The translations under genes and the position numbers were made by a program. From Octopus vulgaris (Eukaryota), in assembly GCA_951406725.2 (NCBI GenBank), contig OX597815.1, positions 84,196,001 to 84,260,000 on the forward strand: a stretch of 64,000 nt of DNA, written 5' to 3'. The notes under the pieces are model-generated. The model was not told the origin of the DNA. It worked only from the letters and a program-made list of their open reading frames with translations, and did no database searches. Below, in pieces: positions 8,075 to 36,204 of the stretch (the stretch's first letter is position 1; every line of letters begins with the position of its first letter).

Positions 8075-8572
8075 CATTATTCTGATTTATTTCAAAATTT
8101 CTTGCCAATAAAGTTCCAGTTTCAAACTTAGATCCGAACCTCTTTCATTAGATCTTCAACAACATTATATTTGTGCATGTATACGTATATGTGCAGTATG
8201 TGTAGTCGGTGCATGTGTAGATTTTTATGTTTTGTTTCAACTATGAATTCTCATGCATATAATTGCATGTCTAGACATGCGCCTATATACTTAAATGATA
8301 AATTTCTATAAAGTTGTACAGATGTTTACAGTTCCAGTAATGGCTTGGATCTGTAGTCTTCGAATCAGCTTTCTCCGTTCTGGTTTTGAGAAGCCTAATT
8401 TCTCAAGATTGATACTTTGCCAGTATGTTACATATCTCAGTGCCCCAGTAATTACAGGTACAAATCTGAACTTGTAATCTGGATAGAGTAACTGTGGATT
8501 TCTCAATAGTTCAGCATACGTATTTTCTTTTTCACTGATCTTTAGCTTTATGATAACATCCGCTGGGCATAC
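8075..8572 (-). mobile_element. 5'-truncated RLE-type (R4/Dong-like) non-LTR element, endonuclease C-terminus plus 3' UTR
   Basis: CPADVIIKLKISEKENTYAELL...FVPVITGAL...LQIQAITGTVNIC matches the K..KY..L / PxxxGALG / LQ...GT..I tail seen in the other RLE copies here. Confidence 0.8.
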
Positions 8573-8959
8573 ATTTATGTATATATACATGCGTGCGCGT
8601 GAGTGCATATGCTATGTCCGTGTTCAAGTTTTATTCTTTTAGATTTTAGATTTTTCATATATTTAATAGTTTTTTATTATTATTATTGTAGCTAGTTTGG
8701 AACAAAATTTAATAAACTCACATTCGTCGTTTCTACGTATGTATAGTGTCATTCTGAAAAAAAAAATGAAAGTAATTGGCCACCTGTGTTATTTCTTATC
8801 CAGTGCTTGGAATTAATGTAGACTTTACTGTTAAAGTTTTTCTTTTTTATATATATCGTTAGCCCTATACGTTAGCATTGACGTGTTTATTTGCTTGTTT
8901 TGGTCAAATTTTTTACTCTTAGGTTTTCATGCCAATAGGTGTTGATTTTACTATATGTG

Positions 8960-20547: not shown

Positions 20548-20599
<52 letters not shown>

Positions 20600-20601
<2 letters not shown>

Positions 20602-20804
20602 TATGTTTGACTTTTGCTTTACATTTGCACAAGCTGGCTCCAAGTCTCACCCAGAGACCTCAAGAGACAACAAGTTGGAAGTTCATGTTGGTGTTATGCC
20701 TAGGGTGCCATATATTTGGTTTTGTACTTAGTGTTTTACTAGTGAATGCCTAAAAAACCATACGAAAACTTGGTTTGTGTTAAAACTTGAGATTACAAAG
20801 AAAG

Positions 20805-20808
<4 letters not shown>
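20600..20808 (-). mobile_element. 3' UTR-only copy of the R4/Dong element at 20841-22045
   Basis: Aligns end to end, with scattered substitutions, to 20841-21050; flanked by (TAA)n. Confidence 0.9.
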
Positions 20809-20840
<32 letters not shown>

Positions 20841-20842
<2 letters not shown>

Positions 20843-22045
20843 TATGTTTGAATTTTGCTTTATATTTGTACAAGTTGGCTCCAAGTCTCACCCAGAGACC
20901 TCAAGAGACAACAGGTTGGAGGTTCATGTTGTTGTTATGCCTAGTGTGCCATATATTTGGTTTTGCATTTAGTGTTGTACTAGTGAATTTCTAAAAAAAA
21001 AAAAACGAAAATTATGTTTGTTTTAAAACTTGAGATTACATAGAAAGTATTTTGCGTAGGATATCTGCAGTTCCCATGTGCACTATCTTTTGAATTTCTG
21101 CCATTTTGGGGTTTTCTGGTATCTGAGTTAGGTAGCAATCAGCCCCTTTTGCTAACCTTCCCAGGGCACCTATGACAACAGGTATTGTTTTAGTCTTCAG
21201 GTTCCACATTTTGATGATTTCTATTTGAAGATATTTATATTTGCTCAGTTTTTGGTATGTCTTGACAGATACGTTTATATCGATTGGGACAGTCATATCA
21301 ATGAGGAGGCATGTTCTTTGTCTGAAGTCTTTCAATATGATGTCTGGCCTATTTGCATCTATCTTTCTGTCAGTTTGAATGGTGAAGTTCCAGAGGAGTG
21401 AGATGTGGTCATTTTCAAGCACTGGAGGTGGTTTGTGTTCCCACCAGTTTTTTTCATGGGGCAAATCCAGGTTTTTGCAAATCACCCAGTGAATATATTG
21501 GGCAGCTCTATCATGCCTGTTGAGATATTCTGTAGGCGCTAGAAGACTGCACTTGGAGACAACATGATCAATGGTTTCACTTGGTTGTTGATTTACACGA
21601 CCTGTTGGACTACTGCCGTTCTTTAATATGTTGGTCTGGTAGTTCCTTGTTGGTAGGCATTGATCTTGAGCTGCTATGATAAACCCTTCTGTTTCAGATT
21701 TTAAGCCAGAGGCCAATAGCCATTGATGTGTCAGGGCTTTGTCAACATCTACATTATTCGCTCTCTTTGGATATTTGCCATAGAGAGGTTTTTCTTGCCA
21801 TTTATCATTCCGAATATCTAAGGCAGCAGTTTTGGCACGGGTTTTCATGCGCTTAGCGTTTTCTGTGCTTGTTTCTTGTATGTCTAATTCCGAAATTTGC
21901 TGTATTCGGAATTCATTTAGATATTCCTTTGTCTGTTTTGTTACTGAGTGTGATGCTTTCTTGTTTTCATGTTTTGAGACAAGTTTTAACATCCTGTCCT
22001 CAGAGTTTTTCAGGTAGGTGTCTAGGTCAATTGTAGCAATCTTCA
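20841..22045 (-). mobile_element. 5'-truncated R4/Dong non-LTR retrotransposon: zinc-knuckle region, restriction-like endonuclease and 3' UTR
   Basis: Open frame 21036-22045 has ETEGFIIAAQDQ, ETIDHVVSKC (first two CCHC cysteines replaced: PTGRVN), YLNRHD, RPDIIL...LLIDMTVP, KLSKYKYL, PVVIGALG. Both ends lie in (TAA)n, the known Dong target. Confidence 0.95.
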
Positions 22046-33428: not shown

Positions 33429-34175
33429 CGTGTGTGGATAAGCACGCCGGTTGTGCACGAGTGTATGCACGTTATGTGTGGAGGCGCGTGCATACATTTA
33501 TATACATATATATATGTATGCATATATATTTGAAATCATCACACAGCGACGCATTCGTATATATATATATATACAGGCATATATGTGTGTAGTTGTGGGG
33601 TGTTTATGGGCGTACGTAAGCGTCTGTATGTTTATATGTGCCTCCATGCAATATCTCTGTGTGTCTCCACATGTGTACTTTCATTCATTTATAAAGTAAA
33701 CGTCCTTTCAAAGCATTCCAAAAATTTGCATATGTCAGTCAGTAAAACAATAGAACTAGCTAAAACCATTCGCGGCATAAACATTCATTATTGTCGTTGT
33801 ATTTCCGTTGTCATTTGTGTATTCTTTAGATGACATATTTCTCGAATTTGTTTCTATCACTCTTCTTGTTTCATCTCATAACAATGTTTCAGTAATGTTT
33901 TTATTAACTTTCAATTTCACAATACAACTGCATTTTCCGTTTATTATTAATGTTTGTTTGTTTTTTTCATTTGCTTTTGTTTTGTCTTTTTTATTCTCTG
34001 TGAAAATATTTATTTAGTATTATGTATGCGATAGATGTTTTTGAATATATGTGCGTGCACGGGCATGTGTATGTGTACGTGCGTGTGCGTGTGCATGTGT
34101 GTTGTGTGAATGGGTGTGTGAATGAGTGGGTGTGTAAGTGTGTGTATGCATGACATATATATATATGTGTATATA

Positions 34176-34226
<51 letters not shown>

Positions 34227-34490
34227 CAATTAAGGACAACTACTTAATAAGGAAAACTTAACAAGAAATTGTCAGGTAGATAGCGTAAGAACCTCATAAG
34301 AGAAAAAATTTCGAAAATAATTATTTCTTATTGAACATATTAATTTATATAAAGAGGGCATTATATACTTGCCAGAAGGCATTATACATACATGCCAAAC
34401 GCTAAGAGGGACAATTAGTCATTTCTACCAAAAATATTACTAATCCCACCGAATGCAATTTTTCAAAGTAAGACATTTAAAAAAATATAT

Positions 34491-34538
34491 AGACCTGTAT
34501 CACAGTGATTTCATACTTACGTACTCATCAGCAGGCCT
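34491..34538 (-). ncRNA. Type I hammerhead ribozyme, copy 1
   Basis: AGGCCUG-CUGAUGA-GUAC-GUAA-GUAU-GAAA-UCAC-U-GUGA-UA|-CAGGUCU: full catalytic core, stems I-III, GNRA loop II. Confidence 0.9.
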
Positions 34539-34972
34539 GAATGCATTATAAATAAACAACGACCCTGCCCCGCTTAAGTCGATCAGCTAACTGTTCAACA
34601 TTCAACGAAGCACATGGGTGAGTTTACATATATTACATCCTGTCAAATGGCAAACTTTTACGAATTGCATTTCGGAAGAGGAAAAGTTTTTTCGGAATAA
34701 AAATTTAGCAGTTAAGGACAACTACTTAATAAGGAAAACTTAACAAGAAATTGTCAGGTAGATAGCGTAAGAACCTCATAAGAGAAAAAATTTCGAAAAT
34801 AATTATTTCTTATTGAACATATTAATTTATATAAAGAGGGCATTATATACTTGCCAGAAGGCATTATACATACATGCCAAACGCTAAGAGGGACAATTAG
34901 TCATTTCTACCAAAAATATTACTAATCCCACCGAATGCAATTTTTCAAAGTAAGACATTTAAAAAAATATAT

Positions 34973-35020
34973 AGACCTGTATCACAGTGATTTCATACTT
35001 ACGTACTCATCAGCAGGCCT
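34973..35020 (-). ncRNA. Type I hammerhead ribozyme, copy 2
   Basis: Identical to copy 1, shifted by 482 bp. Confidence 0.9.
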
Positions 35021-35454
35021 GAATGCATTATAAATAAACAACGACCCTGCCCCGCTTAAGTCGATCAGCTAACTGTTCAACATTCAACGAAGCACATGGG
35101 TGAGTTTACATATATTACATCCTGTCAAATGGCAAACTTTTACGAATTGCATTTCGGGAGAGGAAAAGTTTTTTCGGAATAAAAATTTAGCAATTAAGGA
35201 CAACTACTTAATAAGGAAAACTTAACAAGAAATTGTCAGGTAGATAGCGTAAGAACCTCATAAGAGAAAAAATTTCGAAAATAATTATTTCTTATTGAAC
35301 ATATTAATTTATATAAAGAGGGCATTATATACTTGCCAGAAGGCATTATACATACATGCCAAACGCTAAGAGGGACAATTAGTCATTTCTACCAAAAATA
35401 TTACTAATCCCACCGAATGCAATTTTTCAAAGTAAGACATTTAAAAAAATATAT

Positions 35455-35502
35455 AGACCTGTATCACAGTGATTTCATACTTACGTACTCATCAGCAGGC
35501 CT
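35455..35502 (-). ncRNA. Type I hammerhead ribozyme, copy 3
   Basis: Identical to copy 1, shifted by 964 bp. Confidence 0.9.
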
Positions 35503-35876
35503 GAATGCATTATAAATAAACAACGACCCTGCGTTTGGCATGTATGTATAATGCCTTCTGGCAAGTATATAATGCCCTCTTTATATAAATTAATATGTTC
35601 AATAAGAAATAATTATTTTCGAAATTTTTTCTCTTATGAGGTTCTTACGCTATCTACCTGACAATTTCTTGTTAAGTTTTCCTTATTAAGTAGTTGTCCT
35701 TAATTGCTAAATTTTTATTCCGAAAAAACTTTTCCTCTCCCGAAATGCAATTCGTAAAAGTTTGCCATTTGACAGGATGTAATATATGTAAACTCACCCA
35801 TGTGCTTCGTTGAATGTTGAACAGTTAGCTGATCGACTTAAGCGGGGCAGGGTCGTTGTTTATTTATAATGCATTC

Positions 35877-35924
35877 AGGCCTGCTGATGAGTACGTAAGT
35901 ATGAAATCACTGTGATACAGGTCT
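35877..35924 (+). ncRNA. Type I hammerhead ribozyme, copy 4 (inverted arm)
   Basis: CTGATGA 35884-35890, GAAA 35903-35906, predicted cleavage after A35917; 7-bp stem I 35877-35883/35918-35924. Confidence 0.9.
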
Positions 35925-36070
35925 ATATATTTTTTTAAATGTCTTACTTTGAAAAATTGCATTCGGTGGGATTAGTAATATTTTTGGTAGAAATGACTAA
36001 TTGTCCCTCTTAGCGTTTGGCATGTATGTATAATGCCTTCTGGCAAGTATATAATGCCCTCTTTATATAA

Positions 36071-36113
<43 letters not shown>

Positions 36114-36162
36114 CATACATACATATATATACATATACATATACATATACATATATGTACAT

Positions 36163-36204
<42 letters not shown>

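Follow-up and report, generated by a model that had tools for sequence, protein, structure and literature searches.

Paired fixed ends of a hammerhead retrozyme in Octopus vulgaris point to Penelope-type insertion from a single RNA

In the genome of Octopus vulgaris, a 482-bp unit with a hammerhead ribozyme is inserted mostly as two arms facing head to head, and the outer ends of such a pair lie at two fixed positions of the unit, A and B, almost always one of each. We are highly confident that this reflects paired priming at two sites on one RNA. The family is probably a young, non-autonomous hammerhead retroelement (a non-LTR retrozyme) inserted by a Penelope-type (most likely Neptune-clade) reverse transcriptase-endonuclease by way of a 482-nt circle, as judged from the sequence of its ends, alleles, and target sites.

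The window, which is the whole 64-kb stretch of DNA analysed, carries 2.72 copies of the unit on the minus strand and 1.13 copies on the plus strand, head to head within a (TA)n tract (Table 1). A tandem repeat search found a period of 482 over 34224-35532, with 2.7 copies at 99%, and the units of the B arm differ from one another at only two single sites; the alignment of the A arm reaches 36078, with one mismatch, into the TA tract. The ribozyme strands are directed outward, so that each 3' end abuts (TA)n, and a 119-nt tail is confined to the B-arm end. An earlier reading made from the letters of the window (the sequence-only reading) had described this head-to-head geometry, with its outward ribozyme strands and 2-nt GC overlap, and all of its coordinates were borne out. 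The window locus is a young retrozyme insertion with Penelope-type architecture and a tail about three times the usual length. Elsewhere in the window, at 20548-21048, lie two copies of a 241-bp unit, 90% identical and each begun by a (TTA)n run, in which a search for a hammerhead found none.

Table 1. Features of the window insertion (window positions; phase 1 is the first base 3' of the hammerhead cut) and location of the second retrozyme family
Feature	Position	Strand	Details
Left half of (TA)n target tract	34155..34225	.	Tandem repeat, period 2, 35.5 copies
B arm, 2.72 units of the 482-bp retrozyme	34224..35532	-	1309 bp; phase 412 to fixed end B, phase 274
119-nt tail, phases 156-274, between start sites A and B	34224..34342	-	Derived from end phases
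Type I hammerhead copy 3, cut between 34498 and 34497	34491..34537	-	Core match, 34509-34531
Type I hammerhead copy 2, cut between 34980 and 34979	34973..35019	-	Core match, 34991-35013
Type I hammerhead copy 1, cut between 35462 and 35461	35455..35501	-	Core match, 35473-35495
Cut-to-cut monomer, predicted circle, 482 nt	34980..35461	-	Circular fold, 33% G+C
Head-to-head junction, 2-nt GC overlap	35531..35532	.	Phase 412 meets phase 96
A arm, 1.13 units	35531..36073	+	543 bp; phase 96 to fixed end A, phase 156
Type I hammerhead of A arm, cut after 35917	35878..35924	+	Core match, 35884-35906
Locus-private allele, phase 146	35581	+	Also 36063, 35316, 34834, 34352; all 5 copies, both arms
Right half of (TA)n target tract	36074..36200	.	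Tandem repeat
Second hammerhead retrozyme family, 469 bp	L059:215-1200; L199-L228		Longer stem II; 3360 first-look candidates

The unit is 33% G+C, its longest internal ORF spans 41 aa, it has no LTR structure, and its fold gives a z-score of -5.9 against shuffled sequences. A full type I hammerhead core is present in four of four copies, one per unit, and compensatory changes occur in stems I and II, both within the family and between two families. An Rfam search of the window gave no match at the gathering score; the hammerhead is therefore called from the core and the compensatory stem changes. In the A-arm copy, stem I has 6 to 7 bp, stem II has 4 bp, and stem III is palindromic with a 1-nt loop; because of that loop, the ribozyme is predicted, by analogy with those described in PMC4209133, to need a dimer for cleavage. 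In the circular fold, a predicted long stem (phases 38-49 with 305-317) encloses both A and B. A search of the insertion and of the 64-kb window for an ORF with reverse transcriptase and GIY-YIG domains found none; such ORFs are present elsewhere in the genome.

Across the 2.8-Gb genome, a first look gave 928 candidates for the unit, and 39 scored places, the window among them, were read whole; these first loci are biased toward young, long copies. An exact pattern of the left end plus TA occurred at 151 places (control, 0). The second set was drawn from 100 of these, of which 14 were already in the first 39, and 80 stretches covered 82 of the 86 others; in this set one end is B by design, so that only the other end tests pairing. 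Alignment found a head-to-head pair at 91 of the 119 loci, 90 of the 119 having a clear pair with both outer ends in view, and no inverted partner at 28. At L138, the same two-arm insertion is seen twice (311-808 and 8087-8584), 7.8 kb apart; this is a segmental duplication or an assembly repeat, and it was counted once.

Of the 3' ends, 69 were unselected, and 66 of these cluster at two sites 119 nt apart (33 at phases 145-165, site A; 33 at phases 262-285, site B; 3 elsewhere), where 9% would be expected from a uniform distribution. Eighty-six two-arm loci have an outer end at A or B on either side; of these, 85 are A/B, one is B/B, and none is A/A; if end type were chosen freely, so few same-type pairs (1/86) would have a probability of about 1e-24. 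The first 39 loci contributed 28 A/B pairs, along with two B/other pairs and nine loci with no partner, and the 80 B-anchored loci contributed 57, along with the single B/B pair, two B/other pairs, one locus that ran off the stretch, and 19 with no aligned partner. Of the loci that could not be classed at first, two later proved to be A/B, L106 by position and L070 by sequence, and three carry tiny second arms. Positions alone, taken from the place lists, gave 21 A/B pairs, no A/A among 82 A ends, and one B/B. The sole B/B locus among the 86 is L142. Priming at permuted positions, as the sequence-only reading had supposed, is thus replaced by two fixed sites; nor do all copies share a single fixed 3' end, which that reading had held would refute it, there being two sites, one for each end.

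The arms themselves vary widely. The longer arm is B at 53 loci and A at 29, the median arm is shorter than one unit, and both arms exceed 482 bp at 18/76 loci. Family-wide, 5' ends are common at phases 41-80 (30 versus 16 expected), which coincide with the 5' strand of the long enclosing stem, and are rare inside the tail. In the first 39 loci, a "forbidden zone" of arm-length differences looked like a point for fold-back copying, but the zone is gone in the 80 B-anchored loci. Blocked twin priming was likewise set aside, as 5' ends do not pile up at the partner's start site.

The target is (TA)n at both ends in 86 of 90 two-arm loci. At L038, a non-repeat AT-rich site, there is a target duplication of 13 to 14 bp, and the B end has no microhomology; duplications are plausible at L045, L048, and L087, and pure (TA)n, the window locus included, hides any that may be there. 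Because of the duplication at this non-TA site, we read the target cut as staggered and made by an endonuclease, the start sites being guided by protein, and not as a random break mended by homology. Of the earlier proposal, that cDNA was primed at a broken (TA)n tract, the target stands, while a staggered cut fits better than a break; a choice of priming position by TA-like microhomology does not agree with fixed start sites and the B end of L038. Where the arms meet (n = 81), 37 junctions have a 2- to 9-nt overlap, 17 have a 1-nt overlap or are blunt, and 27 have a short insert, many of these inserts being copied from nearby sequence. At L052, the two flanks (1400-1529 and 2607-2736) are inverted copies of each other over about 55 bp, part of which is non-repeat sequence; it is as if repair had copied one flank onto the other end.

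That both arms derive from one RNA follows from the alleles that they have in common and from their often coinciding 5' ends. At 33 polymorphic sites in 72 loci, the arms of one locus agree in 151 of 157 minor-allele calls, compared to an agreement of 0.14, and at most 0.28, for mismatched pairs of loci. The private allele of the window insertion at phase 146 is in 5/5 copies and in 0/109 other loci covering the site. The 5' ends of paired arms lie within 30 nt of each other at 22/76 loci (11.8 expected), and the excess is wholly in the register with A and B in the same unit (15 versus 7.1, p = 0.001); A reaches further 5' than B, slightly, as a rule (16/21, p = 0.03). Coinciding 5' ends with A slightly ahead are what would be expected of two polymerases that follow one another along a single RNA. 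These results, and the A/B pairs found locus after locus, support the earlier suggestion that both DNA ends primed cDNA on ribozyme-sense RNA and that the two cDNAs were joined.

An inverted pair could also arise in other ways. Self-priming on an antisense template has been proposed for Penelope elements (PMC8557442; PMC3846280), and a comparable account of the octopus loci would have one cDNA fold back and copy itself, endonuclease resolution setting the second end and later central deletions blurring the palindrome. It would explain why the arms have alleles in common and why near-palindromic junctions are enriched (the 22/76 above; compare PMC3846280), the common variants of L042, L063, and L067 sit in the smallest-loop hairpin register, and PMC8557442 attributes the tail to endonuclease resolution. 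Nonetheless, we regard it as quite improbable. At 26 of 76 loci each arm holds sequence absent from the other, so that neither can be a sub-copy, and simple fold-back copying is therefore not general, although later central deletions could blur that count; in the near-palindromes the shorter A arm usually extends further 5' than B; either arm may be the longer; and both ends fit the model of two reverse transcription start sites shown in vitro on sense RNA (PMC11167929). It is hardly credible that the structure is a fold-back artefact of reads or assembly or that it is a fold-back DNA transposon descended from one master palindrome. The window junction is bridged by no listed contig of four runs, which may come from individuals without the window insertion. 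However, its two arms differ in fixed end and unique flank, each locus has its own junction, and seven other head-to-head joints are found in contigs of two independent runs, each with weak support, in one contig and with 25 to 29 letters on the short side; as for a master palindrome, arms resemble their own partner and not the same arm at other loci.

Given paired priming on one RNA, a circular template is favoured and, from the pattern of alleles, seems a good deal more probable than a linear one. The sequence-only reading had also pointed to a circle; the arms longer than one unit on which it drew fit a linear multimer equally, and the circle is favoured on other evidence. The 41 multi-copy loci represent 26 haplotypes, and at sites covered at least three times, with slippage-prone tracts left out, non-majority alleles were fixed within the locus in 126 cases, partial in 14, and single in 95. 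Eleven private alleles are fixed in both arms, for example, in 8/8 or 5/5 copies. In a toy simulation without local duplication, a circle lineage left only fixed and single alleles and a linear multimer lineage left only partial and single ones; those observed are mostly fixed and single. An uncut linear multimer with paired A/B priming, coming from source arrays homogenised by local duplication, also has evidence in its favour. In vitro, hammerhead mutants insert unimpaired, and unprocessed RNA is the chief substrate of the anole element (PMC11167929). Mixed arrays exist: partial alleles are present in L047, L042, L063, and L067, and in the last three, A and B fall in different units according to the common variants, with A one unit further downstream. 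A whole-lap test, which asked for 5' ends matching modulo one unit at different lap numbers, was null (7 versus 5.6 expected, p = 0.32), and 119 of about 900 candidates were read, so that source arrays may lie among the rest. We still judge this explanation rather unlikely: at least 26 different uniform source arrays would be needed for the 41 loci, the toy linear lineage leaves no fixed alleles, whereas those observed are mostly fixed and single, and, with a median arm below one unit, a linear-only lineage would shrink. A further alternative is that linear cut monomers were read over and over, the polymerase jumping exactly from one end of the template to the other; this would also impose a monomer bottleneck and leave fixed private alleles. 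Template jumps, however, are usually imprecise, and 137 of 138 passes of the ribozyme cut site gained or lost no base; 5' ends are no commoner at that site than chance would give (4 versus 3.3 expected), no run-off there was seen, and 104 of 164 arms cross it. Such monomers are a very remote prospect. One sequencing run, X10, which may be RNA, covers the unit and was left out of the evidence.

Some arrays are not uniform. L106 (290-3991) has two unit variants in a period-3 pattern (YYZ YYZ), such as a trimeric circle or the subsequent duplication of a block would leave. The largest locus (G000:C1:64639647-64655253; L229, L070) is a single 15.6-kb insertion with an A arm of 504 bp and a B arm of about 31 units; the roughly 21 units read, on either side of a middle 4.7 kb, are nearly uniform yet have recurring variants, which indicate local duplication. 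In view of the L106 pattern, the partial alleles, and these recurring variants, multimeric templates or later local duplication contribute.

We picture insertion as follows. Tandem copies would be transcribed, cut by paired hammerheads, and closed into a 482-nt circle. A GIY-YIG endonuclease would make a staggered cut in (TA)n, as the target duplication suggests, and so produce two 3' ends, one of which would start cDNA at A (phase about 152-161) and the other at B (about 270-278), in keeping with the genomic rule; B would lie 119 nt downstream of A on the same RNA. The simplest cause of paired sites would be a protein dimer with one subunit per site. Both polymerases would then move the same way on the template, B after A, and could exceed unit length, as the data in part indicate. 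Finally, the 5'-truncated cDNAs would be joined head to head through a brief stretch of microhomology or a small number of bases templated nearby, which is the outcome seen at the junctions, and the product would be the "inverted copy plus one-sided tail" of Penelope elements. In a more specific version, a reverse transcriptase dimer would hold one closed circle at two start sites defined by structure, with one subunit per cut end; both subunits would move in the same direction with strand displacement and, as at the 15.6-kb locus, could complete as many as about 31 laps before the cDNAs were joined. This version we advance tentatively, as a possibility short of an even chance.

The rule of paired ends recurs in other elements of the genome. 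A second retrozyme family (Table 1) is about 70% identical to the 482-bp family and has a tail of about 100 nt; of its 29 loci read, 15 are head to head, with nine clearly A/B, three probably A/B, three with other ends, and no A/A. The two families have in common a fold, some compensatory pairs, and the long stem around both sites, the joint alignment being used only for the middle stems because in it the second family's hammerhead is mis-registered and two rows enter flank. A third relative is present in L156. There is also a young autonomous element (L179-L198), which we take to be of the Neptune clade from its domain order and cysteine motif, with a 781-aa open frame that encodes reverse transcriptase plus a GIY-YIG domain at the C terminus and that is intact in many copies. 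Like the retrozyme, it targets (TA)n and has two ends, one per side, both with AAAT before the tract, and a similar long enclosing stem. Of 501 a ends, the first 100 were taken; 16 b ends lay within their range, and five of these formed a/b pairs, with no a/a among those 100 a ends and no b/b. By exact pattern, the short end of this element is seen 501 times and the tailed end 100 times, unlike the retrozyme. It differs from the retrozyme in its 38-nt tail, the distance between its ends, and in its lack of a canonical hammerhead in the four copies searched. The two have in common a stem motif downstream of B (12 of 13 nt, p = 0.02, post hoc), with no significant nucleotide similarity to the 482-bp unit beyond that short motif. 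Since the motif is post hoc, the hammerhead is absent from the four copies, and there is no wider similarity, the 781-aa element is a candidate partner only. A partner search by GIY-YIG domain, in which 150 of 6136 candidates were scored, gave several Neptune-like families, none homologous to the unit in the stretches read, and the unit had no significant alignment to 50 GIY-YIG loci, save for a separate retrozyme-like piece in L156. A hammerhead-like match in L152 was rejected as a sign of a partner, as it is not linked to the GIY-YIG match of that locus.

How does this compare to known systems? Much of the setting is published, so far as the available portions of the papers go. Penelope elements are described as having inverted copies and a one-sided tail of 30 to 40 bp (PMC8557442, PMC3846280); Craig et al. 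(2021; PMC8557442) describe tandem and inverted structures of Penelope-like elements and call their origin undefined. Circular templates have been proposed for both Penelope elements and retrozymes (PMC4209133, PMC7229834), and Li et al. (2026; bioRxiv 10.64898/2026.07.22.740005) argue that retrozymes derive from Penelope-like elements as non-autonomous forms. As in the animal non-LTR retrozymes of Cervera and de la Pena (2020; PMC7229834) and the same preprint, the octopus unit is non-coding, low in G+C, and tandem, with one type I hammerhead each, and is dispersed alongside Penelope-like elements; a circular template and Penelope-type mobilisation were proposed there as well. At 482 bp it is slightly larger than the 150 to 450 bp of PMC7229834, and the 13- to 14-bp duplication of L038 agrees with the retrozyme pattern of target duplications of >4 bp when present. 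The published animal retrozymes are described as head-to-tail tandems, whereas the octopus insertions are mostly head to head with two fixed, paired ends; in the available text of PMC7229834 the words "inverted" and "orientation" are absent, and that of the preprint by Li et al. holds no analysis of ends.

The likeness to Penelope-type inverted insertions that the sequence-only reading had noted holds, given the 91/119 head-to-head pairs. The endonuclease-bearing (EN+) Penelope-like elements (Craig et al. 2021, PMC8557442; Arkhipova et al. 2013, PMC3846280) are described as having an inverted, 5'-truncated copy, a tail often at one end, (TA)n targets, target duplications, and palindromic junctions. 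The octopus retrozyme differs in its 119-nt tail (versus 30 to 40), its lack of an ORF, and its arms, both of which can be multi-unit; one-sidedness of the tail is near absolute (85/86), compared to "often" in those elements. The published explanations of the tail are endonuclease resolution or antisense self-priming, while the octopus data favour two-site priming on one sense RNA. In vitro, the Penelope-type protein of Frangieh et al. (2024; PMC11167929) cleaves both strands, extends them, and starts at two internal RNA sites; it is predicted to be a dimer, the start sites show no strand preference, and hammerhead cleavage is dispensable. That element, PAc Poseidon, thus resembles the retrozyme in its two start sites bounding the tail, AT-rich target, extension of both cut strands, predicted dimer, and need for little or no homology; its start sites are alike on both strands in bulk, whereas the octopus genomic sites are one per end.

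A further comparison is with L1. In twin priming, the second end of the target uses an internal position of the same RNA for priming and leaves an outward-pointing inverted segment. In the octopus family the second site is fixed and does not depend on chance homology, and the overlap between arms can span as much as several units, whereas the arms of L1 abut; arms of the non-overlapping L1 type were not the rule, 5' phases being scattered and overlaps wide. In the literature covered, with most subscription papers and supplements outside its scope, we found no head-to-head retrozyme insertions, counted end pairing, or allele evidence for one template. What is new here is the strictness of end pairing, a tail as long as 119 nt, and evidence, in a retrozyme, that both arms come from the same molecule.

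The mobilisation of retrozymes by Penelope elements through circular RNA has been a proposal resting on co-occurrence and sequence kinship. Our findings supply genomic evidence at the level of the ends: Penelope-type ends on a retrozyme, a near-absolute rule of one A and one B, and one template for both arms. The A/B rule helps to explain Penelope-type insertion and turns the two-site finding in vitro into a testable prediction of pairing on single molecules, and the 482-nt unit offers a small substrate, with well-separated sites, for tests of rolling-circle reverse transcription. If a dimer does work on one closed circle, then the tail and inverted copy seen in Penelope elements would generally be what an asymmetric mechanism, with two sites and one template, leaves behind, and retrozyme arrays would have their full length from the start.
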